DNA from: an uncultured Solirubrobacterales bacterium
GTDB taxonomy: Bacteria > Actinomycetota > Thermoleophilia > Solirubrobacterales > 70-9
NCBI GenBank assembly: GCA_963774305.1
Contig: CAVZEM010000007.1
Coordinates: forward strand, 93,231 to 157,230
Direction of reading: 5' to 3'
DNA length: 64,000 nucleotides
In this document: positions 4,197 to 59,527 of the stretch, piece by piece
How positions within the stretch are numbered: the stretch's first letter is position 1
Layout of the letters: each line of letters opens with the position of its first letter
The notes under the pieces: model-generated
What the model was told of the DNA's origin: nothing
The model's input: the letters and a program-made list of their open reading frames with translations, nothing else
The model's database searches: none
Translations under genes and position numbers: made by a program

Positions 4197-5158
4197 AGGT
4201 TGCGGTTCTAGGCGGCGGGATCTCGAGCGAGCATGAGGTGTCGCTGCGCTCGGCGGCCTCGGTCGCCGCTGGTCTCCGGGAGGCGGGCCACGAGACCGTC
4301 GAGGTGACCATCGACCGCGAGGGACGCTGGACGACCGACGGCGAGGCGGTCAGCTTCAGTCCGGCCGGGGGCCTCCTGGACTGCGACGTCGCGTTCCCGG
4401 TCCTGCATGGCCCCGGGGGAGAGGACGGCAGCGTTCAGGGGCTGCTGCAGGTCCTCGCCGTCCCCTACGCGGGCTCCGACGTGGAGGCCTCGGCGATCTG
4501 CATGGACAAGCTCGTCTTCAAGGACCTGCTCGCCCGGCACGGCATCCCGCAGGTCGAGTACTGCCGGGCTGGGGAGGCCGACTGGAAGGCGATCGCCTCG
4601 GGATTCGGCCAGCCGGTCTGGGTGAAGCCCGCGCGGCTCGGCTCCAGTGTGGGGATCGCACCCGCCTCCGGTGAGGAGGAGCTCGACCGCGCCGTCGAGC
4701 AGGCGGGCCGCCACGACCCGCGCGTGATCGTGGAGGCGCCCGCGCCGGGCAAGGAGGTCGAGTGCTCGCTGCTCGGCAACGAGGAGCCGATCGCCTCACC
4801 GCCGGGCGAGATCGATACCAAGGGGCACGATTGGTACGACTACGAAGCCAAGTATGCGGAGGGCGGGATGGAGCTGGTGGTCCCGGCGCGCATCTCCGAT
4901 CAGGCGACGGAGCGCCTTCGCGGGCTCGCCAGGGAGGTGTTCACCCTCTGCGGGTGCAGTGGCCTCGCGCGCTGCGACTTCTTCGTCGACGGCGACGTGG
5001 TGCTCGTCAACGAGCTCAACACGATCCCCGGCTTCACCGAGACCAGCGTCTACGGCAAGCTCTTCGAGGCGGACGGGATCTCCTATCCCGAGCTCTGCGA
5101 CCGGCTCGTGAAGCTGGCGTTCGAGCGCCACGAGAGGGCGCGCTCGTACGAGTTCTAG
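4193..5158 (+). CDS. ddl: D-alanine--D-alanine ligase
   Basis: MKVAVLGGGISSEHEVSLRSA N-terminus, ATP-grasp core and C-terminal NELNTIPGFT motif. ATGA overlap with the pknB stop. Confidence 0.92.
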   Translation: MKVAVLGGGISSEHEVSLRSAASVAAGLREAGHETVEVTIDREGRWTTDGEAVSFSPAGGLLDCDVAFPVLHGPGGEDGSVQGLLQVLAVPYAGSDVEASAICMDKLVFKDLLARHGIPQVEYCRAGEADWKAIASGFGQPVWVKPARLGSSVGIAPASGEEELDRAVEQAGRHDPRVIVEAPAPGKEVECSLLGNEEPIASPPGEIDTKGHDWYDYEAKYAEGGMELVVPARISDQATERLRGLAREVFTLCGCSGLARCDFFVDGDVVLVNELNTIPGFTETSVYGKLFEADGISYPELCDRLVKLAFERHERARSYEF

Positions 5159-5283
5159 CGGCCACCAGGCCGTTCCACTTGACCAAACGGGTCGCGCTTA
5201 CGCGCGCCCTCGCATCAAGGGCGAAGCCCGTAGCGACTTCTAGAAGGCGGCCGCTTGTGGCCGCGACCTGATGGCGAAGCCGT
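5158..5283 (-). repeat. Composite intergenic repeat: R2 element (reverse orientation) with an R1 30-nt hairpin (5185..5214) nested in it
   Basis: Its reverse complement aligns end to end with the R2 copies at 12398, 24666 and 28050. The third stem-loop is replaced by AAACGGGTCGCGCTTACGCGCGCCCTCGCA. It exactly fills the gap between the ddl TAG and the kinase TGA. Confidence 0.85.
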
Positions 5284-12397: not shown

Positions 12398-12493
12398 AAA
12401 CGGCTTCGCCATCAGGTCGCCGCCACAGGCGGCCGCCCCTGATAACCGCTCGGGGCTTCGCCCCTCGCTCATAGCGGGCGGCCTGGTGGCGGC
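12398..12493 (+). repeat. R2 structured intergenic repeat
   Basis: AAACGGCTTCGCCATCAGGTC-GCCGCCAC...GGGGCTTCGCCCC...GTGGCGGC. The closing stem carries a compensatory change relative to the other copies. Confidence 0.8.
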
Positions 12494-12521
12494 TGGCCCC
12501 TTAACATCCCGCGCCGCGGCC

Positions 12522-18958: not shown

Positions 18959-20072
18959 ATGCGGGTTCAGATCGTCGATCCGGCGGCCTTCACGCCACCG
19001 TACGACCACGCCCTGTCGGGCGCGCTGGCCCGTGCAGGCGCGGAGGTGGAGCTGATCACGGCGCGCTTCCCGTACGGCCCGGTGCCGGTGGAGCGCGGCT
19101 ACTCGGTTCGAGAGTTCTTCTATCGGCGCGGATCCCGCCCCGAGATCAGCCCCCTGCGCCGGCGCCTGCTGCGCGCTGCGGAGCACATCCCCGACATGCG
19201 CCGCTACCGGCGGGTGGCCGAGCAGGCCGACGTCGTCCACTACCAGTGGCTGCCGATCCCGGCTCTCGATCGCCGCCTGCTGCCCCCGAAGCGGCCGCGC
19301 ATCTACACCATGCACTGGCGCCTGCCCCAGGCCGACTCGCGTATCGGCCGCACGCTGACGAAGCTGCTCGCTGAGATGGACGCGGTCGTGGTCCACTCCG
19401 AGCACGGCGCCGGACGCCTTCGGACCGACTTCGGGGTGGCGGCCGAGCGGCTGCGCGTCATCCCGCACGGGGCCTTCGACTATCTCACCAGCCAGCAGGA
19501 CGAGCTGGCACTGCCGGAGGAGCTACGGGACGTCGAGGGGCCCGTGATCCTCGCCTTCGGCCTGATCCGCCCCTACAAGGGGACGGACGTGCTGCTCGAG
19601 GCCTTCTCGCGAATCGAGGGCGCCGAGCTCTGGATCGTCGGCATGCCGCGCATGCCGATGGACGAGCTGCGCAAGCTGCGCCGATCAGGCGCCCGGCCGG
19701 GTCCGCTTCGTGGACCGATTCATCCCCGATGCCGAGATCCCGGCCTTCATGCGCCGTGCCGACCTCGTCGTGCAGCCGTACCGGAACATCGAGCAGTCGG
19801 GCGTCCTCTACACGGCCCTCGCCTTCGGGCGGCCGCTCGTCCTCAGCTCAGTGGGCGGCTTCACCGAGATCGGGAAGCGGGGGGCGGCGCGCCTGGTCCC
19901 GCCGGGGGACGCCGGCGCCCTCGCCGAGGCGCTCGGCGACCTGCTCGCGGACCGCGGCGCGAGGGAGGCGCTGGCCGCCGGCGCGGTCCGGGAGGCATCG
20001 ACGATCTCCTCATGGGACCGGATTGCGGAGTCCACCATGGCCCTCTACCAAGAGCTCCTCGGCTCGACATGA
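18959..20072 (+). pseudogene. Glycosyltransferase family 4, interrupted by a frameshift near 19679-19682
   Basis: The N-terminal domain in frame 2 reads to ...GMPRMPMDELRKLR. The GT4 C-terminal domain continues in frame 0 as ADQAPGRVRFVDRFIPDAEIPAFMRRADLVVQPYRNIEQSGVLYTALAFGRPLVLSSVGGFTEIG... to the stop at 20072. Confidence 0.8.
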
Positions 20073-20124
20073 ATCGGGTTGCTCCTGACGGAGCACCCTC
20101 GCGTTAACCGATAATCCCCCGCCA

Positions 20125-21285
20125 ATGGCGCTCGAGATCGTCTTCTGGGCCGCGGTCGGCCTGATCGTCTACGCCCACCTGGGCTATCCGCTGCTGCTCT
20201 GGGTGCTGGCCAAGCTCTTCGGGGAGGGGGACGGGGCGAGGGCGCGCGACAGCGCGACCCGTGAGATGAGGGAGGCCGATGTTGAGCTTCCTCACGCCAC
20301 GCTGGTCATCCCCGCCTACGACGAGGAGGAGGTGATCGAGCGCAAGATCGCCAACGCGCGGGCGCTCGACTACCCCGCGGATCGACTGGAGATCGTGGTC
20401 GCCTCGGACGGGTCGAGCGACCGGACGGCCGAGCTGGCGCGCGAGGCGGGAGCAGACCGCGTGCTTGAGCTTCCGCGCGGCGGCAAGGTCGCTGCCCTCA
20501 ACCAGGCCGTGCGGGAGGCGACCGGCACGGTCCTCGCCTTCTCCGACGCGAACAGCTTCTGGCGCCCTGACGCACTGCGTCGCCTGATCGCCCGCTTCGC
20601 CGACTCGCGCGTCGGATACGCCTGCGGCCAGGTGCGCTTCGAGGGGGGCGAAGGCGGCAACCAGGAAGGCATCTACTGGCGCTACGAGATGGCGGTGCGC
20701 TCGATGGAGACGAGGCTCGCTGGGATCACGGCGGGCAACGGCGCGATCTATGCGGTCCGTCGGGAGGCGTATATCGAGCTCGATCCCAGCCGCGGCCAGG
20801 ACATAGGCTTCCCGTTCGAGCTGACCAAGCGAGGCTGGCGCGCCGTCTACGAGCCCACGGCGGTGGCCGAGGAGAAGATGGCCCCGACGGTCGAGGGAGA
20901 GTTCCGCCGCAAGCGCCGGATGATGTGGGGGCTCTGGGACGTGATGCTCAAGTGGGGCATGCTCGACCCGCGCGGCTACGGCCCCGGCTACGCCCTCGAG
21001 ATCTACTCTCACCGCCTGCTTCGCTACCTGACGCCATGGCTGCACCTGATCGCGCTCGGGACCAACGTGGCGCTGCTCGGGCACGCGTGGGTATACGTCG
21101 CAACGATGGCACTGCAGCTCGCGCTGCTGGTCGGGGCGCTGCTCGGGCGCTTCGTCCCCGCCCTGCCGTTCAGGATCGCCTACTACTACGTCACCGTGAC
21201 CGCCTCCATCGCAGTGGGACTCTGGGACCGGCTCCGAGCCGGATCCGTGCCGATCGGCTGGGAGAAGGTCGAGGGCACCCGATGA
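20125..21285 (+). CDS. Membrane glycosyltransferase family 2 (processive-type topology)
   Basis: N-terminal TM, LVIPAYDEEEVI, VASDGSSDRT, FSDANS and GNGAIYAVRR motifs, plus C-terminal TM helices. Confidence 0.85.
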   Translation: MALEIVFWAAVGLIVYAHLGYPLLLWVLAKLFGEGDGARARDSATREMREADVELPHATLVIPAYDEEEVIERKIANARALDYPADRLEIVVASDGSSDRTAELAREAGADRVLELPRGGKVAALNQAVREATGTVLAFSDANSFWRPDALRRLIARFADSRVGYACGQVRFEGGEGGNQEGIYWRYEMAVRSMETRLAGITAGNGAIYAVRREAYIELDPSRGQDIGFPFELTKRGWRAVYEPTAVAEEKMAPTVEGEFRRKRRMMWGLWDVMLKWGMLDPRGYGPGYALEIYSHRLLRYLTPWLHLIALGTNVALLGHAWVYVATMALQLALLVGALLGRFVPALPFRIAYYYVTVTASIAVGLWDRLRAGSVPIGWEKVEGTR

Positions 21286-23454: not shown

Positions 23455-24648
23455 TCAAACGGGTGGCGCTGACGCGCGCCCTCGCACATGCTTCTTGCGC
23501 CGTCCCTTCGCGAAGCGCTTGATGCGCTTCTGCACGGCTGCCTGGAGTTGCGGGACCAGCGGGATCATCGCCCCGCCGGGACAGGCGGTCAGCCCGAGCG
23601 TGGTGTGTCCCAGGACCCGAGGCACGGTGATCACGGTCCCCGCCGGATAACGGCTCTCCGATCCGCCGGCCGAGGTGAGCTGTACGGCGCCGGTGGCGGG
23701 GGTGGCGTGGTTGATCCCCATCTTCCAGGCCAGGAACTGGATGATCGAGCGCTGGGCCTGCGGGGTCGGGGGCTCGCTCGTGTGGTCGCCGATCGAGGCG
23801 ATCGAGGTTGTCTGCGAGTTGAAGCCCTGCGCCTGCGCGCCGACGACCGGGCGCTTCAGGCCGCCGGCGCGGCCCTCGTAGAGCGTCCCGAAGCGGTCGA
23901 CGAGCGCGTCGTAGCCGATGTCGTTCCAGCCGTTGCCGAAGACGTGAAAGCGGCAGATTCCGAGGGCGATGGAGGGCGCCTCGGCGGGCGTGTAGTCGTT
24001 GGCGTTCACGGTGTGGTGGATCACGGCGGCCCGCACGGTGCCGTACTGCGGCGGCCCCCGGGGTGGGCAGCCGCCGTCGGCGAGGTCCGCGCCCCAGGCG
24101 GCGCGGCTGACGACCTGGGGCTTCGGCGACAGGGCCTGGGCGATCGGCGTGGAGGCGACGGAGATCACCGCGGCGTTGATCGCGTGCCGGGCGGAGTTCA
24201 CGAGCCGGTCGGCGAAGCTGCCCGCCGTTCCCGAGACGTTCACGAAGTGCAGGCGCCCGTGTGGCCGGAACGGGGCCCGCACCTGGGCGATGTCCGCGCC
24301 CCCTACATAGATCGGCGTGCCGTCCTCCTGCTCCACCCAGTCGCTCCAGTGGCCGCCGTCGTCGCGAACTCGGATCTGGACGCTGTGGGGCTCGCGCGCG
24401 ACCCCGACCAGGTCGAAGCGGTGGGGCGCCTCCACGGGCGCCGAGATCCAGCGCGGCGCCTTCTCGTGAGGATGCGCGGACCGGACCGAGGCGATCGCAG
24501 CGGGCGCCATGCGCTTCGCGGCGGGAATCGCGTGCTCGAAGTCGACCGCCCCGGGCATGTACGGGCGCAGCGACAGCGCCGGCGCGGCGACCCAGGCGAG
24601 GGCCGTGATCAGCGCCAGGCACACCCCCGTCAGCACCTTCACGCGCAT
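23455..24648 (-). CDS. Secreted N-acetylmuramoyl-L-alanine amidase (Amidase_2/PGRP domain)
   Basis: AVIHHTVNANDY...CRFHVFGNGWNDIGYDALVDRFGTLYEGRAGG. The signal-peptide-like start MRVKVLTGVCLALITALAWVAAPA at 24648 is preferred. The track start at 24678 lies inside an R2 repeat. Confidence 0.8.
   Translation of the reverse strand: MRVKVLTGVCLALITALAWVAAPALSLRPYMPGAVDFEHAIPAAKRMAPAAIASVRSAHPHEKAPRWISAPVEAPHRFDLVGVAREPHSVQIRVRDDGGHWSDWVEQEDGTPIYVGGADIAQVRAPFRPHGRLHFVNVSGTAGSFADRLVNSARHAINAAVISVASTPIAQALSPKPQVVSRAAWGADLADGGCPPRGPPQYGTVRAAVIHHTVNANDYTPAEAPSIALGICRFHVFGNGWNDIGYDALVDRFGTLYEGRAGGLKRPVVGAQAQGFNSQTTSIASIGDHTSEPPTPQAQRSIIQFLAWKMGINHATPATGAVQLTSAGGSESRYPAGTVITVPRVLGHTTLGLTACPGGAMIPLVPQLQAAVQKRIKRFAKGRRKKHVRGRASAPPV
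23457..23486 (+). repeat. R1 30-nt hairpin repeat
   Basis: AAACGGGTGGCGCTGACGCGCGCCCTCGCA between convergent genes. Its reverse strand supplies the last codons (RGRASAPPV) and the stop of the amidase ORF. Confidence 0.85.
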
Positions 24649-24665
24649 CCTGTGTTTGGAACACA

Positions 24666-24762
24666 TCGGCTTCGCCATCAGATCGCGGCCACGAGCGGCC
24701 GCCCCACATAAGTCGCTCCGGGCTTCGCCCTCCGCTCCAAAGTGGAGCGGCCTGGTGGCCGC
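24666..24762 (+). repeat. R2 structured intergenic repeat
   Basis: CGGCTTCGCCATCAGATC-GCGGCCAC-...-GGGCTTCGCCC-CCGCTCCAAAGTGGAGCGG-CCTG-GTGGCCGC. Its last base is the first base of the DUF3105 stop codon (CTA on the + strand). Confidence 0.85.
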
Positions 24763-25541
24763 TATCCGAGGTTGATGGGAACCTGCTGCTCCGGCCCGTT
24801 GCCGCGGTACTTGTCGCGGAAGTTACGGATCACGTCCAGCACGACGGGGTTGTAGTTCGGGCAGACGACCTCGTTGGTCCACGCGGTGACCGCGACGTCG
24901 TAGGGCATGTCGGGGTCGGGATAGAGCAGAACGCCGTCGGGATCCGCGTCGAAGACGCCCTTGAGGGCCAGCTGCTGGTCCTGGGTCAGGCCCGGCTTGT
25001 AGTGGATCTCGATCCGCCCATGCTCCATCGCGTGGACCTCGTTGCGGATGTTGGTCTCCTTGCTCGTGTCGCTGGTGACCGGCGTCCGATAGGCGCCGTC
25101 CGAGATCGGGACAGGGTTGTGGTTGCCCGAGGTCGGCGGCACGGTCCCGTAGTGGACCGGCGTCGAGTTCGGCACGTGCGTGTTGCCCTCGTCCGGCAGG
25201 TTCTCCTTGAGCTGACAGCCCGCCTTCTGGGCGGAGGCGGCGAGGTCGCCGAACTGGGTCGGGGCGACGGACTCGCTCGTCCCCTGCCGGCAGTCGGGTG
25301 TCAGGTCCTTGAAGCTGCCCGTGTTCTGGATGTGGGCGTTGCTGCAAGCGTCGGCCGCGGCGCTTCCACCGCCACCACCACTCGCGATCACGGCGACCAG
25401 CCCTGCGATCACCGTCGCCGTGAGGAGACCGGCGACGACGTAGCCGGCCATCAGGCGCCGGCGCCCGCCGGATTGCGACGCCCGCTCGGCGGCGAGTCGC
25501 TGCGCGCGGAGGCGCTCCTTCTCTTCCTTGCGGCTGGCCAT
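24762..25541 (-). CDS. DUF3105-domain membrane-anchored protein
   Basis: N-terminal TM, then ...HAMEHGRIEIHYKPGL...AVTAWT..., characteristic of DUF3105. Confidence 0.65.
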   Translation of the reverse strand: MASRKEEKERLRAQRLAAERASQSGGRRRLMAGYVVAGLLTATVIAGLVAVIASGGGGGSAAADACSNAHIQNTGSFKDLTPDCRQGTSESVAPTQFGDLAASAQKAGCQLKENLPDEGNTHVPNSTPVHYGTVPPTSGNHNPVPISDGAYRTPVTSDTSKETNIRNEVHAMEHGRIEIHYKPGLTQDQQLALKGVFDADPDGVLLYPDPDMPYDVAVTAWTNEVVCPNYNPVVLDVIRNFRDKYRGNGPEQQVPINLG

Positions 25542-28050: not shown

Positions 28051-28146
28051 CGGCTTCGCCTCCAGAACGCGGCTGCAGGCGGCCGCCCCACACAAGTCGC
28101 TTCGGGCTTCGCCCTTCGCTCCGAGGTGGAGCGGCCTGGCAGCCGC
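28050..28146 (+). repeat. R2 structured intergenic repeat
   Basis: ACGGCTTCGCCTCCAGAAC-GCGGCTGC-...-GGGCTTCGCCC-CGCTCCGAGGTGGAGCG-...-GCAGCCGC, flanked by TGA (upstream gene) and TTA (the usp stop on the minus strand). Confidence 0.85.
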
Positions 28147-28851
28147 TTAGACCTTCGCGGCGACCCGCTTGACGATGCCGGGCTTCGAGAACCTGACCGC
28201 GGCGCCGCGCGGGACAGCGATCACCGGGGTGTTCGAGGTCTCGATCGCGTAGCCGGCGCGAGCGCTGAGGTTGACGTGACCCTTGGGAGACGCCGGCGAG
28301 GAGCCGACGACCAGCAGGTCGGCGCCCTCCGGGCGGTCGGCGACGGTCCCGCCGAGTGCGTCGGCGAGGCCCTTGGCCGTCTCGAGCGCGGCGTCATCGC
28401 CATCGTCCTCGGGCAGCACGCCGACGGTCTTGATCTCGTGGTTCTGGTTGCGATAGCCGGCGGGGGCGATCGCAACGGCGGCGGGGCCGCCGGTCAGCAT
28501 TCGCTGGGCGGAGGTGCCGGGCATGACGGCGCCCTCGGCCGTCCGGTAGTCGGAGCCGAAGACGATCAGGTCGGCCTTCTCGCTCTCGGCCAGCTCCCAG
28601 AGGCCCGTGCCGGTCGAGGCGTGGACCACGACGTGCTGATCGATCTTCTCGTCGCCCAGCGCCTCGGCGCCGTGCTTGAGCAGCTCGTCGGCCTCCTTCT
28701 CCTCCAGCGCTTCACGCGCGCTGTCGGGCTGCTGCGTGTGACGCACGTAGGCGAGAGAGATCTCTCCGCCCAGCTCGCCCAGCGTGCGGCCCAGGGCGAG
28801 CGCGTCCCTGTCGTTGTCGGTGTCGTCATAGGAAACGATGATCTTGGCCAT
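28147..28851 (-). CDS. Universal stress protein (tandem Usp domains)
   Basis: From the ATG at 28851: MAKIIVSYDDTDNDRDALALG...LIVFGSDYR...LLVVGSSPASPKGHV. Confidence 0.8.
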   Translation of the reverse strand: MAKIIVSYDDTDNDRDALALGRTLGELGGEISLAYVRHTQQPDSAREALEEKEADELLKHGAEALGDEKIDQHVVVHASTGTGLWELAESEKADLIVFGSDYRTAEGAVMPGTSAQRMLTGGPAAVAIAPAGYRNQNHEIKTVGVLPEDDGDDAALETAKGLADALGGTVADRPEGADLLVVGSSPASPKGHVNLSARAGYAIETSNTPVIAVPRGAAVRFSKPGIVKRVAAKV

Positions 28852-39306: not shown

Positions 39307-39379
39307 TGGAGCTAGCCGGACTCGAACCGGCGACCTCCTGGGTGCGATCCAGGCGCTCTCCCAACTGAGCTATAGCCCC
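39307..39379 (-). tRNA. tRNA-Ala (anticodon CGC)
   Basis: Reverse complement: GGGGCTATAGCTCAGTTGGGAGAGCGCCTGGATCGCACCCAGGAGGTCGCCGGTTCGAGTCCGGCTAGCTCCA. Clean cloverleaf with the G3:U70 Ala identity pair. CCA is not encoded. Confidence 0.95.
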
Positions 39380-40916: not shown

Positions 40917-42233
40917 ATGGGAATACTCGACGACGCGATTCGCGAACACCTCGATCTGAAGCGCAAGCACGGCGCGCACGACGCCGACCTGCGCGAGATC
41001 GAGGACGAGGCGTTCGGGTCAACCGATCGCCCGGACCCGTTTGCCGCAAACGAGCTCTTCAACGAGGTCTCGTCCGCGGGCGTGGCCGATGCCCCCGGGG
41101 GCCCCTCGACTGAACCCGCCGGCCTCGGCGAGGTCGAGCCGCCGGCAGGACCCAGCGAGCCCGATGCCGGGGGCGAGGAGCCGACCAGGTTGGTCGAGCC
41201 CGAGGCCCTGCGTCCCACCGAGCCGCCGTCCGAGGAGGCGCCGATCGAGCCGATCAGCCCGCCTGAGGGGGACAGCCAGATTCCCGGCCAGGTCGAGCTG
41301 CCCGGGCAGGATGAGATCCCGGGACAGGAGCGGCTCGAGGATCCGCTGGAGGGCTATCAGCGCTCCACCGAGCCGGAGCCGGAGCTTCCCGCCGAAGCCG
41401 AGCCGGAGCCGGAGCTTCCCGCCGAAGCCGAGCCGGAGCCGGAGTTCGAGGCCGAGCCGCCATCGCCGTCCGAGTCGCTCGAGGATCTGATCGCCGAGGA
41501 GGAGCCGTTCCCGGAGGACACCGCCGCGCCGCCCGCCGCGCCGCGCGAGGATGCAATCGAGCCGCCCGAGGATGCAATCGAGCCGCCCGAGCCCGAGCCT
41601 CCCGCCGCGGTTGAGCCCGCTGAGCCGGAGCCCGAGCTGCCGCCCGAGCCCGAGAGTGCGGTCCCCGATCCGCCTCCGCCACCGCCCGATGGCGGACCGG
41701 AGCCTCCGGGCAGGGCTCGCGGCCGAGTCGACGTGCCCACGCAGGAGCATCCCCCGCCGGGCGACACCGGCGGCCTACCGCCGCTGCCCCCTCAGGAGTC
41801 CGCGTACGCGCCCGAGCCGCTCGAGCCGGTGGACGAGGCGCCGTCCGCGGAGGAGGAGCTGCCGGCGGCGGAGCCGAGCGAGGAGGAGGCGCCGGGCGGC
41901 CCAGGCGGCCCCGCCCTCTACGACTTCGAGACCGACGAGGACCCGCTGGCCGCCACGCCCGCGCCGGCGGATGACGACGACTTCGAGGCCCTGGGTCCGG
42001 CCGAGGAGGCCGCGCCCTACGTCGAGGAAGAAGAGCCATACGCCGAGGAGCCGGTGTCGGGCACCGAGCCTCCCCCTGAGGAGCCGGGAACCGAGGTCAG
42101 GCCGGCGCTCGAGGACGAGGAGGTCTACGAGGGCGGTTCTCTCGACCCGGAGGAGACCTACGAAGAGGACGAGGGGGAGGGGGAGGGCCTGTGGTTCGAG
42201 AAGGGCCCTCCCAAGGACTTCGACTTCGAATGA
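40917..42233 (+). CDS. Acidic Pro/Glu-rich low-complexity protein with conserved-looking termini
   Basis: N-terminus MGILDDAIREHLDLKRKHGAHDADLREIEDEAFG, C-terminus GLWFEKGPPKDFDFE, and a centre of roughly 350 aa of E/P/A repeats. Confidence 0.6.
   Translation: MGILDDAIREHLDLKRKHGAHDADLREIEDEAFGSTDRPDPFAANELFNEVSSAGVADAPGGPSTEPAGLGEVEPPAGPSEPDAGGEEPTRLVEPEALRPTEPPSEEAPIEPISPPEGDSQIPGQVELPGQDEIPGQERLEDPLEGYQRSTEPEPELPAEAEPEPELPAEAEPEPEFEAEPPSPSESLEDLIAEEEPFPEDTAAPPAAPREDAIEPPEDAIEPPEPEPPAAVEPAEPEPELPPEPESAVPDPPPPPPDGGPEPPGRARGRVDVPTQEHPPPGDTGGLPPLPPQESAYAPEPLEPVDEAPSAEEELPAAEPSEEEAPGGPGGPALYDFETDEDPLAATPAPADDDDFEALGPAEEAAPYVEEEEPYAEEPVSGTEPPPEEPGTEVRPALEDEEVYEGGSLDPEETYEEDEGEGEGLWFEKGPPKDFDFE
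41370..41445 (+). repeat. Tandem 30-bp coding repeat, about 2.5 copies
   Basis: GAGCCGGAGCCGGAGCTTCCCGCCGAAGCC occurs twice, plus a partial third copy (EPEPELPAEA units). Confidence 0.9.
41547..41588 (+). repeat. Tandem 21-bp coding repeat, 2 copies
   Basis: GAGGATGCAATCGAGCCGCCC occurs twice (EDAIEPP units). Confidence 0.9.
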
Positions 42234-42236
42234 GTT

Positions 42237-42266
42237 AGACGGGTCGCGCTGTCGCGCGCCCTCGCA
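42237..42266 (+). repeat. R1 30-nt hairpin repeat
   Basis: AGACGGGTCGCGCTGTCGCGCGCCCTCGCA exactly fills the gap between the stops of the convergent acidic-protein gene and gdh. Confidence 0.85.
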
Positions 42267-43568
<1,302 letters not shown>

Positions 43569-43663: not shown

Positions 43664-43736
43664 GGGGCCATAGCTCAGTTGGGAGAGCGCGGCGTTTGCA
43701 ACGCCGAGGGCGCGGGTTCGAGCCCCGCTGGCTCCA
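43664..43736 (+). tRNA. tRNA-Ala (anticodon TGC)
   Basis: GGGGCCATAGCTCAGTTGGGAGAGCGCGGCGTTTGCAACGCCGAGGGCGCGGGTTCGAGCCCCGCTGGCTCCA. G3:U70 is present; CCA is not encoded. A TACAAT hexamer sits at 43647..43652 upstream. Confidence 0.95.
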
Positions 43737-49928: not shown

Positions 49929-50822
49929 TTAAGCGGTGGCCGCGGCGGGCAGCTGCTCGTCCGCGTGGTACGAGCTGCGCACGAGCGGGCCGGATGCGAC
50001 CGAGGCAAAGCCCAGCTTGTAGGCCGCCTTCTCCAGCTCCGCGAACTCGTCGGGGTGCCAGTAGCGGTCGACCGGCAGGTGCTTCTCGGTTGGCCGCAGG
50101 TACTGCCCGACCGTCAGCACCTGCACGCCGTGGTCGCGCAGGATCGAGAACGCCTCGACCATCTCGTTGAACTCCTCGCCCAGTCCGACCATCAGGCCCG
50201 ACTTGGTGACCACCTCGTCGCCGCCCATCTCCTTGGCCATTCGCAGCACCCGGGCTGAGCGCAGGAAGTCAGAGCCGCGCCGCGCCATCGGATAGAGCCG
50301 CGGCACGGTCTCGACGTTGTGGTTGAAGACGTCGGGCCGCTCGGCGATCACCTTGGCGAGCGGCATCTCCTGCCCTCGGAAGTCGGGCGTCAGGACCTCG
50401 ACCTTGCAGCCGGGCGCCATCCGCCGGATAGAGCGGATCACGCCGACGAAGGCGCCGGCGCCGTAGTCGGGGAGGTCGTCGCGGTCCACGGAGGTGATCA
50501 CGGCGTGCCGCAGTCCCATGCGCTTGACCTGGTTGGCGACCCGGAGCGGCTCGAGCGGGTCGTGCCAGGTGGGCTTGCCGGTCTGGACGTTGCAGAAGCC
50601 GCAGCGCCGGGTGCAGACGTCGCCGAGGATCATGAAGGTGGCGGTGCCGCGCTCCCAGCATTCGCCGACGTTCGGGCAGTTGGCCTCCTCGCAGACGGTG
50701 TGGAGGTTGTCCGCCTCGATCGACTTCTTCAGACGACGGTACGTTGGGCCACCCGGCGCCGGGACCTTGAGCCAGGGCGGCTTGCGGGAGCGGAAGGGCA
50801 CCTTGCCCTCGTCGTCCGCCAT
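49929..50822 (-). CDS. lipA: Lipoyl synthase
   Basis: RKPPWLKV, CEEANCPNVGECW and CTRRCGFCNV radical SAM/auxiliary cluster motifs. The ATG at 50822 is preferred. The track start at 50915 would translate through an R1 repeat. Confidence 0.9.
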   Translation of the reverse strand: MADDEGKVPFRSRKPPWLKVPAPGGPTYRRLKKSIEADNLHTVCEEANCPNVGECWERGTATFMILGDVCTRRCGFCNVQTGKPTWHDPLEPLRVANQVKRMGLRHAVITSVDRDDLPDYGAGAFVGVIRSIRRMAPGCKVEVLTPDFRGQEMPLAKVIAERPDVFNHNVETVPRLYPMARRGSDFLRSARVLRMAKEMGGDEVVTKSGLMVGLGEEFNEMVEAFSILRDHGVQVLTVGQYLRPTEKHLPVDRYWHPDEFAELEKAAYKLGFASVASGPLVRSSYHADEQLPAAATA

Positions 50823-50860
50823 GCGCCCGCCCGGGTTGGCCCGGGAGCGGGTGACGTGTA

Positions 50861-50890
50861 TCCGAGGGCGCGCGTCAGCGCGACCCGTTT
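50861..50890 (-). repeat. R1 30-nt hairpin repeat
   Basis: TCCGAGGGCGCGCGTCAGCGCGACCCGTTT on the + strand, between the lipB stop and the preferred lipA start. Confidence 0.85.
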
Positions 50891-50920
50891 CATCGTGGGC
50901 GATCGACTCCGCCATCGCTT

Positions 50921-51688
50921 CTACCGTACCGAGGCCGGCTCGCCGAGCAGCTCGGTCAGCGCGTCGGAGGTCGTGGCAACGGGCTCGCGGCCATAGATCT
51001 CTCCAAAGCCGTCGGCCACCACGTCCATGTATGCGTCCAATATGCGAGGGCGCGCGTCAGCGCGACCCGCTTCATGTTGGGAGCCGAGCTCGCGGCAAAG
51101 CGAGGTCATCCGGACGCCCTCGATGCCGCAGGGGACCACCCACTCGAACGGCTGCAGGTCGTTGTTGACGTTGACCGCGAATCCGTGGGTGGTGACGCCG
51201 CGGCTGACGTGCACGCCGATCGAGCCGATCTTGCGCCCCTCCGGGGGACTGCCGCCGACCCAGACGCCGGTCAGCCCGTCGATCACCTCGGCCTCGATCC
51301 CGTAGGCGCCGAGTGAGCCGATCATCAGCCGCTCCAGGCGCCGCACGTACTCGTGGACGTTGTCGCCGTACGGCTTCAGCGAGACGATCGGATAGCCGAC
51401 CAGCTGGCCGGGGCCGTGGTAGGTGACGGCACCGCCACGGTCCGTCTCGCAGATCTCGATCCCCTGCATCCGGTACCAGTCCTCGCCCATCGCGAGCTCT
51501 CCGGGCTGGGTGCGGCGCCCCTTCGTGTAGACGGGGTTGTGCTCGAGGAGCAGCAGGGCGTCTGGAATCTCGTCCGCCTGGCGCGCTGCCTCGATCCGCT
51601 TCTGCAGACGCCCGGCCTCCTCATAGGGGACCAGCCCGCAACGCACGGTGAGCACCTCGTCCACAGCCCGATTGTCCCACGCAGGCAT
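50921..51688 (-). CDS. lipB: Octanoyltransferase (lipoate-protein ligase B) carrying an in-frame R1 insertion
   Basis: LLLLEHNPVYTKG, RGGAVTYHGPGQLVGYPI, KIGSIGVHV and VPCGI motifs. The ATG at 51688 is preferred. Confidence 0.88.
   Translation of the reverse strand: MPAWDNRAVDEVLTVRCGLVPYEEAGRLQKRIEAARQADEIPDALLLLEHNPVYTKGRRTQPGELAMGEDWYRMQGIEICETDRGGAVTYHGPGQLVGYPIVSLKPYGDNVHEYVRRLERLMIGSLGAYGIEAEVIDGLTGVWVGGSPPEGRKIGSIGVHVSRGVTTHGFAVNVNNDLQPFEWVVPCGIEGVRMTSLCRELGSQHEAGRADARPRILDAYMDVVADGFGEIYGREPVATTSDALTELLGEPASVR
51043..51072 (-). repeat. R1 30-nt hairpin repeat inside the lipB coding sequence
   Basis: TGCGAGGGCGCGCGTCAGCGCGACCCGCTT on the + strand. It is translated in frame as (E)AGRADARPR(I). 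Confidence 0.85.
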
Positions 51689-51807
51689 GGCCGGCTCAGC
51701 TCGAGGCACCCGCCGCCGGGGCGCCCTCCTGGTCGGGCGGCCAGAACGGCCACGCCTCGAAGTGGGAGCAGAGACCTGCATCGTCGAGCCGGACGACCCA
51801 GGAGGCT

Positions 51808-56627: not shown

Positions 56628-56657
56628 AAACGGGTTGCGCTGTCGCGCACCCTCGCA
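56628..56657 (+). repeat. R1 30-nt hairpin repeat, preceded by the R2 5' module ACGGCTTCGCC at 56614..56624
   Basis: AAACGGGTTGCGCTGTCGCGCACCCTCGCA. The stem carries a compensatory pair (TGCGC/GCGCA vs CGCGC/GCGCG). Confidence 0.85.
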
Positions 56658-58677: not shown

Positions 58678-59417
58678 CAGCCGCCCCGCTCCGCTCGGGC
58701 CGCGGGGTCGACGGCCCCGAACAGCGTGGTCGCCGCGGCTCGCGGATCCGGAGCGTCGCGGATCGCCCTGACCACGCAGAGCCGTTCCGCGCCCGCCGAG
58801 ACGACCTCGTCCGCGTTCTCGGCGTCGATCCCGCCGATGGCGAACCAGGGCTTCTCCGCGATCTCGGTCGCTTCGCGGATCAGCTCCGGGCCGGTCGCGG
58901 GGCGCCCCGCCTTGGTGGGCGTCTCCCAGATCGGGCCGACGCTGATGTAGTCGACGGGAGCCTTCGCGGCGGCCTCGATCTGCTCCCGGCTGTGGGTCGA
59001 AAGACCGATGATCGCGCTGGGGCCCATGATCCGCCGCGCCTCGGCCGGGGCCATGTCGTCCTGGCCCACATGGACGCCGTCGGCGCGCAGCTCGAGCGCG
59101 AGGTGGGGATCGTCGTTGACGATGAAGAGCGCGCCGTAGGTGTTGGCGAGCCTGCGGAAGGTGTGGCCCGAGCGCTCGACGACGTTTCGCGGATGCTCCC
59201 GGTCGCGCAGCTCGATCATCCCCGCCCCGCCGCTCATCGCGGCGTTCAGCAGGGCCTCGGGCTCCCGGCCATGAGGCCGGGCGTCGCAGACGAAGTAGAG
59301 GCGCGCCCAGCGCAGTCGCTGGCGCCGCAACTCCCCGATTGCCTCGGGGGGTGCGAGATGAGTCGGGCCGGGGGCGGCTTCGGTCACTGCACGAGCAAGG
59401 GTACGATGAACTTGCAA
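58677..59417 (-). CDS. thiE: Thiamine-phosphate synthase
   Basis: RLYFVCD, FIVNDDPHLALELRADGVHVGQDD, IIGLSTHS, YISVGPIWETPTK and FAIGGI motifs. The exact start is uncertain. Confidence 0.85.
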   Translation of the reverse strand: MQVHRTLARAVTEAAPGPTHLAPPEAIGELRRQRLRWARLYFVCDARPHGREPEALLNAAMSGGAGMIELRDREHPRNVVERSGHTFRRLANTYGALFIVNDDPHLALELRADGVHVGQDDMAPAEARRIMGPSAIIGLSTHSREQIEAAAKAPVDYISVGPIWETPTKAGRPATGPELIREATEIAEKPWFAIGGIDAENADEVVSAGAERLCVVRAIRDAPDPRAAATTLFGAVDPAARAERGG

Positions 59418-59505
59418 CGGGAGCCCACCAAAGGGCTGAGAGGGCGGCTGAAGCGCCGCCGACCGTCTGAACCTGATCCGGGTAATGCCGGCGCAGGGAG
59501 GTTGG
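59414..59505 (+). promoter_or_regulatory. TPP (THI-box) riboswitch
   Basis: CAACGGGAGCCC...GGGCTGAGAGG...ACCGTCTGAACCTGATCCGGGTAATGCCGGCGCAGGGAGGTTG matches the conserved CUGAGA and ACCUGAUCnGGnUAAUGCCnGCGnAGGGA cores. It lies about 25 nt upstream of thiO. Confidence 0.9.
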
Positions 59506-59527
59506 AGCGCCTCGGCCGCAGGTAGCG

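Follow-up and report, generated by a model that had tools for sequence, protein, structure and literature searches.

The lipB gene of an uncultured Solirubrobacterales bacterium carries, within its reading frame, a copy of a short GC-rich hairpin repeat, here called R1, that recurs along the 64,000-nucleotide stretch of contig CAVZEM010000007.1 analysed here (the window). The gene (octanoyltransferase; 50921..51688, minus strand) encodes 255 amino acids from its likely start, the ATG at 51688..51686, within an open reading frame (ORF) that spans 50921..51781, and its product passes the LipB family models Pfam PF21948 (144.5 bits, cut-off 27), NCBIfam NF010925 (209 bits, cut-off 155) and TIGR00214 (157 bits, cut-off 83.6). 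It stands between a 2-oxoacid dehydrogenase E2 gene and lipA (lipoyl synthase; 49929..50915, minus strand), the ATG of which (50913..50915) lies 5 nt beyond the lipB stop codon (50921..50923). The R1 copy occupies 51043..51072 on the minus strand, with its core at 51045..51069 and R1-like flanks reaching to about 51035..51080, and the resulting insert corresponds to approximately residues 205-216 of LipB.

On the plus strand of the window, 51043..51072 reads TGCGAGGGCGCGCGTCAGCGCGACCCGCTT, while the minus, coding, strand of the copy reads CAA CAT GAA GCG GGT CGC GCT GAC GCG CGC CCT CGC ATA TTG and translates to QHEAGRADARPRIL, so that the lipB frame runs through the repeat (...MTSLCRELGSQHEAGRADARPRILDAYMDVV...; ...ELGSQHEAGRADARPRILDAYMDVV...). 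The R1 core has the form CGAGGGCGCGCG-NC-AGCGCGACCCG. Its 25-nt version in lipB, CGAGGGCGCGCGTCAGCGCGACCCG, occurs twice in the window without a mismatch, at 50863..50887 and 51045..51069, and five further copies, at 5188, 20237, 23460, 42240 and 56631, differ by 1-3 mismatches. These seven matches in 64 kb compare with 0.00 expected over 100 shuffles, which bears out the claim of a preliminary description of this DNA that 51043..51072 is an R1 copy lying in frame in lipB. The hairpin consists of a stem of 8 bp, interrupted by a single bulged base, and a loop of 4 nt, and in the lipB copy the stem is lengthened by complementary flanks (CCAA.CAUG / CAU.UUGG). A 50-mer containing this copy folds at -21 kcal/mol as the mRNA strand (z = -2.2) and at -26.5 kcal/mol as the other strand (z = -3.1), and five of the six frames of the copy are free of stop codons.

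We aligned the LipB of the window with its 120 best database matches, which come from Solirubrobacterales metagenome-assembled genomes (MAGs) and are 79-99% identical. The insert is carried by 13 of these 121 sequences (the window and 12 others) as ELGSQHE[T/A]GRADARPRI-[LM]DA, with variants, and is missing from the other 108, which read ELG-x-E-[VQ]-D-M/L-DA, as in ..GSEVD-MDA... All 80 further metagenome lipB loci, at 57-91% identity, are likewise without it (ELG.E[QV]D[LM]DA[FY]). Because the segment is missing from these 108 sequences and from every one of the 80 further loci, the empty state is ancestral and the filled state derived, and the insert proves to be lineage-specific, a point that the preliminary description had left to an ortholog alignment. 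Insert-less orthologs are 245-246 amino acids long, and the LipB of the window shows a net increase of 10. At the DNA level, the empty allele reads TCG GAG GTC GAC ATG GAC and the filled allele TCC CAA CAT GAA (A/G)CG GGT CGC GCT GAC GCG CGC CCT CGC ATA TTG GAC, a net gain of exactly 30 nt. The three codons ahead of the core are also changed in filled lipB (EVD to QHE), and the QHE codons fit the consensus of the R1 flanks; since these flanking codons differ, the event in lipB was not a clean 30-nt addition at 51043..51072. The genuine, frame-preserving insertion proposed in the preliminary description is therefore upheld in its derived state, its frame and its gain of 30 nt, but not as a clean addition at those positions, although deleting exactly these 30 nt does, as it had stated, give ...SQHVLDAY.... 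The same lipB allele is present in two independent assemblies, L001 (ENA) and L002 (JGI).

The insert lies after ..VPCG....MTSL..ELG and ahead of the C-terminal helix, at a point where Thermus LipB reads LGRKV | PMEEAKARVVAAFAEV. The corresponding stretch of M. tuberculosis LipB begins ELGRTV, which agrees with the start of the mycobacterial sequence given in the preliminary description and is where the PDB alignment ends. An AlphaFold model computed from the 121-sequence alignment (predicted local distance difference test, pLDDT, 70; predicted template modelling score, pTM, 0.75; an alignment of 28 sequences gave an unusable pLDDT of 52) places the insert in a coil at residues 202-214, with pLDDT below 50 at 206-213, between a helix at 197-201 and a confident C-terminal helix at 215-232. 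Foldseek matches the model to the solved LipB structures 2QHS (E = 2e-21, TM 0.85) and 1W66 (TM 0.79), and on this model the insert is a surface loop and not part of the core fold, as the preliminary description had expected. The cysteine of the PCG motif (C187) and the lysine of RK.GSIGV (K153) are invariant in the 121 LipB sequences; Ma et al. in 2006 reportedly assigned catalytic roles to both. The ratio of nonsynonymous to synonymous substitution rates (dN/dS) is 0.13-0.27 in filled-filled as well as filled-empty pairs, indicating that purifying selection acts on lipB. As protein, the insert is not conserved: in sequences P0005 and P0012, which are 2% apart overall, 2 of its 10 residues have changed.

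A second R1 copy lies at 50861..50890 on the minus strand (core 50863..50887), 182 nt from the first as measured from start to start. The preliminary description had correctly reported it, in the same orientation, but had assigned it to a lipB-lipA spacer, whereas it is an in-frame insertion in the N-terminal tail of LipA, read in the same frame as the lipB copy and encoding ETGRADARPRI. LipA is 328 amino acids long from its ATG, and its relatives, in which lipA is called from the same position, are 318-323. The window protein begins MAESIAH-DETGRADARP-RIHVTRSRANPGG and its nearest insert-less relatives M.ESIAD-RIHVTRSRANPGG, a difference of 30 nt. At this site, one register yields a clean insertion, with GAT GAA ACG..CCT placed 5′ of a CGCATC that was already there and is identical to the element's own end. 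The tail motif ..(D/E)R[IL]HVTRSRA[NK]PGG..GKVPFR is kept in more than 40 Solirubrobacterales loci and its changes relative to the window are mostly synonymous, so the N-terminal tail of LipA is coding. Across lineages, this tail holds R1 at three positions, the two other sites being occupied in L141, L143 and L144 and in L156, in the same orientation and frame. Locus L208 (the contig of P0023) has decayed R1 copies both at the lipB site and at the lipA site of the window; by LipB distance, L208 is not a close relative of the window.

The third intragenic copy, at 20237..20261 on the plus strand, lies in frame in a gene for a family 2 glycosyltransferase (GT2; 20125..21285), in the linker that joins the N-terminal membrane helix to the catalytic domain (..LFGEGDG-ARARDSATRE-MREADVELP..). 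It uses the opposite orientation of the element, and another frame, from the lipB and lipA copies. Homologs of this glycosyltransferase are 376 (empty), 386 (+10) or 396 (+20, a tandem pair) amino acids long, and the 386-residue form is found in 41 of 121 homologs, that of the window included. The nearest relatives of the window are all empty, and the linker is too variable to decide on a clean 30-nt register.

Beyond the window, a scan for the exact core with one genome per species found at least 119 loci, nearly all in Solirubrobacterales MAGs of many species. Matches in Rhodobiaceae, Gaiellaceae, Terriglobales and Acidimicrobiales were rejected as R1, being the region LSGGQ..QRVALARAL of ATP-binding cassette (ABC) ATPases. 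The core matches 24-25 of 25 nt of the DNA for QRVALARAL, 3′ of the LSGGQ motif (L007, L018, L026, L034, L055, L068 and others), and pattern counts therefore need filtering. In one of its frames, R1 encodes ..RVAL(T/S)RALA.., and the match, whether due to chance or descent, could hint at the origin of the element. With the ATPase matches removed, 110 true copies give the consensus tgATG-CGAGGGCGCGCG-NC-AGCGCGACCCG-TTTnATG. The repeat unit measures exactly 30 nt, and the flanks are conserved, tgATG on one side and T(T/G)(T/A)n(A/G)TG followed by a purine-rich GGrGG on the other. The stems vary by compensatory changes, relatives with other upper stems exist, and R1 frequently lies nested within other repeats. 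Tandem copies are rare (L057, P0186, P0224) and keep an exact 30-nt period; at L057:1836-1925, an in-frame tandem triple extends the N-terminal region of a signal-peptide-like protein, MRHRPHE[TGRAVARPRI][TGHAVACPRI][TGQAVARPGI]TLALLAALFLVVAAG. Read-through inside coding-like ORFs is seen for 22 of the 110 copies (~20%), in four recurring frames. No Rfam family matches R1, and our literature search found nothing on repeats in Solirubrobacterales.

Taken together, R1 is very probably a small non-coding hairpin family, similar to repetitive extragenic palindromes (REPs), that has multiplied in Solirubrobacterales, with the lipB copy a derived, tolerated insertion that is read through. Because the unit measures 10 codons and the lipB copy is stop-free in five of six frames, copies that come to lie in tolerant parts of genes are read through and the gene is not destroyed. 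In lipB, QHE-[T/A]GRADARPRI in place of EVD would enlarge the loop between the short helix that follows the PCG motif and the C-terminal helix, leaving LipB functional and the extra peptide without a required role, and the same process would have acted on the N-terminal tail of LipA and on the GT2 glycosyltransferase of the window. R1 itself would be selfish or neutral, and its copying could be due to a trans-acting function, or to template switching or ectopic conversion by way of its conserved, ATG-containing flanks.

Several observations weigh against this account. No clean 30-nt register, among every register tried, turns the filled lipB allele into the empty one, and the 6-12 nt flanking the copy also differ between the alleles and resemble the R1 flank consensus; together, the missing register and the altered flanks imply that the element does not insert by simple cut-and-paste chemistry. 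The same disparity runs through the family, where the conserved stretch is ~37-45 nt long and more than 30 nt look element-derived, yet every net gain amounts to 30 nt. The 110 copies give no sign of a target-site duplication, the flank pair -4/28 being the same in 40 copies against 34 expected and the pair -5/27 in 44 against 47. Among 14 window ORFs compared with Pfam, none proved to be a transposase and nothing else that could mobilise R1 came to light, in a comparison not aimed specifically at the REP-associated tyrosine transposase (RAYT), an IS200/IS605-like Y1 enzyme. Between the window and L204, only 2 of 39 nt of R1 differ in genes that are 19% diverged (P(<=2/39) = 0.012), and this greater conservation of R1 than of the flanking gene could mean selection at the nucleotide level rather than neutrality. 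In lipA, an internal ATG, which gene callers picked on two 99%-identical contigs to give a protein of 297 amino acids, 31 codons short, could bypass the R1-containing tail. Finally, we infer translation of the insert; the predicted tryptic peptides that span it in LipB are ELGSQHEAGR, ADARPR and ILDAYMDVVADGFGEIYGR, and that of the LipA N-terminus is AESIAHDETGR.

How the sites came to be occupied can be judged from the distribution of filled and empty alleles over the gene trees. With the insert masked, every one of 200 bootstrap neighbour-joining trees requires 7-9 changes in the lipB insert state, and the GT2 state requires at least 11 on 100 of 100 trees. Two candidate explanations of this patchwork were rejected. 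Loss by excision fails because the empty alleles retain the outgroup-like E-[VQ]-D and are therefore not excision products; lateral transfer of a long tract fails because a sliding window finds 25-39% divergence right beside R1 in all pairs. The copies suggest different ages: R1 in the window and in L204 differs at just 2 of 39 nt in genes 19% diverged, and L203, L207 and L208 carry decayed copies. In our estimate, there is about an even chance that the patchwork arose by gain, time and again, at identical preferred sites; a single origin, with some unrecognised manner of spreading, may instead lie behind it. A more far-reaching reading makes of R1 a mobile 30-nt hairpin, active and frame-preserving, that recolonises the same codon positions of lipB, lipA and the GT2 gene across lineages, guided by structure or sequence and without duplication, with template switching or ectopic conversion through its flanks as candidate routes; it is put forward tentatively and falls somewhat short of an even chance.

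The patchwork might instead go back to a single old insertion per gene followed by vertical descent, with gene trees that are unresolved or recombining, or with empty alleles replacing filled ones, accounting for the scatter. All filled lipB alleles do have a common junction structure, (C/G)A(A/G) (C/G)(A/C)(T/G) (G/C)AA ... CGC (A/G)(T/C)N, some copies have diverged as much as their gene (the window and L203 differ at 6 of 39 nt of R1, against 15% in the gene), and in L208 a decayed R1 occupies the lipB site as well as the lipA site of the window. Even so, we regard this history as unlikely. Besides the number of changes that the trees demand, every filled lipB lineage has some empty relative that is closer to it than any other filled lineage, and the gene tree that says so is backed by synteny, with P0002 (filled) and P0006 (empty) both arranged MFS-LysR-SnoaL-lipB-lipA, and by signatures in the LipA tail, where the filled L203, L206 and L209 share MAADP.. 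with the empty L129. The C-terminal tails of LipB likewise go with the backbone lineage, not with the insert state. The outgroup-like E-[VQ]-D of the empty alleles also argues against it, as does the missing low-divergence tract around R1 in filled-filled pairs.

It is quite improbable that the hairpin is kept as a cis-acting element tuning lipB and lipA, be it an mRNA 3′-end, a stabiliser, or a processing or protein-binding site, with the 10 residues as a by-product. Such a role would fit the clustering of R1 at the lipB-lipA junction (one site in lipB and three in the lipA tail) in constant orientation, the covariation in its stem, and the way intergenic copies hug stop codons, as REP-like stabilisers or terminators do; in some pairs, such as the window and L204, the R1 island also beats its coding flanks in conservation. 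Most relatives, however, have no R1 at these sites, the versions in L203, L207, L208 and P0002 are decayed and stem-breaking, and no T-tract follows the hairpin. The idea that LipB contains the 10 residues as an ordinary part, ancestral or functionally selected, and that they resemble the repeat by coincidence has next to no chance of being right. An in-frame segment in an intact gene speaks for it, but it is already contradicted by the identity of the 25-nt core with other copies where chance predicts none, by the absence of the segment from 108 of the 121 sequences in the alignment and from every one of the 80 more distant loci, by its fast change at the protein level and by its low-confidence loop in the model.

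A non-coding hairpin family with tolerated copies inside genes, as we favour for R1, is closest in behaviour to the Rickettsia palindromic elements (RPEs) and in anatomy to the REPs. RPEs, as summarised in PMC10969869 from Ogata et al. 2000 and 2002, measure ~150 bp, are grouped in ten families and code for a peptide that is conserved. R1 resembles the elements outlined in that summary in being a palindromic repeat found in frame in unrelated housekeeping genes, adding a peptide (10 residues each in lipB, lipA and the GT2 gene) to a host protein that is apparently functional (PMC10969869), and in the large intragenic fraction of its copies. With 30 nt and 10 amino acids, it is ~5 times smaller, is a simple GC-rich stem-loop and has no sequence relationship to RPEs. 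Its hosts are free-living, high-GC soil Actinomycetota, and it is used in four frames and orientations, with homoplasy of presence and absence at identical sites.

With the REPs and REPINs, which are mobilised by RAYTs (PMC3733652, PMC3116915, PMC2817692), R1 shares the form of a GC-rich imperfect palindrome of 20-40 nt, its core measuring 25 nt, with many dispersed copies. Further likenesses are the short conserved motif beside the stem, the abutting of stop codons between genes, the nested and composite arrangements and, here, the lack of a target-site duplication. The terminal tetranucleotide GTAG/CGTC of REPs (PMC3733652) is not present in R1, which has the head ATG-CGAGGG. R1 copies are also mostly singletons and not inverted pairs, and, whereas REPs are extragenic by definition, ~20% of R1 copies are intragenic, including three in the window that orthologs confirm to lie inside genes.

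Mycobacterial interspersed repetitive units (MIRUs), reportedly the subject of work by Supply et al. in 1997, are direct tandem units of 40-100 bp (variable number tandem repeats, VNTRs) and not hairpins, situated in the intercistronic gaps of operons, with small ORFs that overlap the flanking stop and start codons, and they are not known to insert in frame inside enzymes. R1 is similar in being a short actinobacterial repeat of intercistronic gaps, where it reads TGATG / TAG-ATG ... GTT-T(G/A)A-TG. Some intergenic copies, among them that at 56631, fit the MIRU-like overlap of stop and start, and the left flank is most often TGATG (32 of 110), but many copies do not fit, and R1 differs in being a hairpin that rarely forms tandem arrays. 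Intragenic MITEs (miniature transposable elements with inverted repeats) such as ERIC, Coxiella QMITE1 and Correia (PMC10969869, PMC5896051) are also small non-autonomous repeats that sometimes form in-frame fusions. A larger size, terminal inverted repeats and duplication of the target site characterise MITEs; R1 was rejected as a MITE for being below their usual size and without a duplication, and neither terminal inverted repeats derived from an insertion sequence nor a related insertion sequence was found.

In-frame 'selfish DNA' in housekeeping genes has so far been seen as peculiar to Rickettsia and a few other bacteria. R1, a much smaller element, does likewise in abundant free-living, high-GC soil Actinomycetota, with roughly one copy in five read through and three genes affected in a single 64-kb window, and it points to a wider phenomenon in Solirubrobacterales that is apparently undescribed. 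What is surprising about R1 is that its occupancy of identical sites is homoplastic. At such sites, the filled and empty alleles of close relatives are natural experiments on the tolerance of enzymes for loop insertions and on repeat movement, and they are usable for studying the latter because the ancestral and derived states are both at hand. If R1 were indeed an active mobile hairpin, it would represent a previously undescribed bacterial route by which essential enzymes gain or lose 10-residue loop segments. In practical terms, gene callers mis-start genes at R1.

The remaining copies of the window are all on the minus strand, and its intergenic ones tightly abut stop codons. The copy at 42240..42264 lies between the stop codons of the convergent genes 40917..42233 and 42267..43568, the latter a Glu/Leu dehydrogenase, and the 33-nt gap between these stops (42234..42266) consists entirely of one R1 copy. 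The copy at 56631..56655 sits in the 43-nt spacer after the gene for E3 (dihydrolipoamide dehydrogenase), has a compensatory stem change (C6>T with G19>A) and is readable as a mini-ORF, TAG-ATG CGA GGG TGC GCG ACA GCG CAA CCC GTT TAG. At 23460..23484, an amidase-domain ORF (23455..24678, minus strand) appears to owe its final ~10 codons (..HVRGRASAPPV) and its TGA stop to R1. The copy at 5188..5212 is intergenic, where a ddl gene and a Ser/Thr kinase gene converge, and is nested in a copy of a second repeat family.

This second family, ~97 nt long and with a GGGCTTCGCCC hairpin, is found at 12401..12497, 24667..24763, 28051..28147 and around 5150..5260. In the copy near 5188, part of the ~97-nt unit is replaced by R1, and the same composite is present in L005, L024, L085, L113 and many other genomes. 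Upstream of the GT2 gene, a hairpin related to R1 with another upper stem (CGAGGG-TGCTCC-GTCA-GGAGCA-ACCCG) occupies 20075..20101 on the minus strand, where the upstream GT1 gene takes its TGA stop (20070..20072) from the hairpin's flank CATGAA; the hairpin is found at the same place in L210 and is absent from L211, in which the gene ends ..LLHS* as against ..LLGST*. The ORF 40917..42233, which has no Pfam match, contains three tandem 30-nt units (CCGAGCCGGAGCCGGAGCTTCCCGCCGAAG) at 41368..41457 that are unrelated to R1. The only Rfam matches in the window are a thiamine pyrophosphate (TPP) riboswitch at 59407..59516 and tRNA genes at 43664..43736 and 39307..39379.

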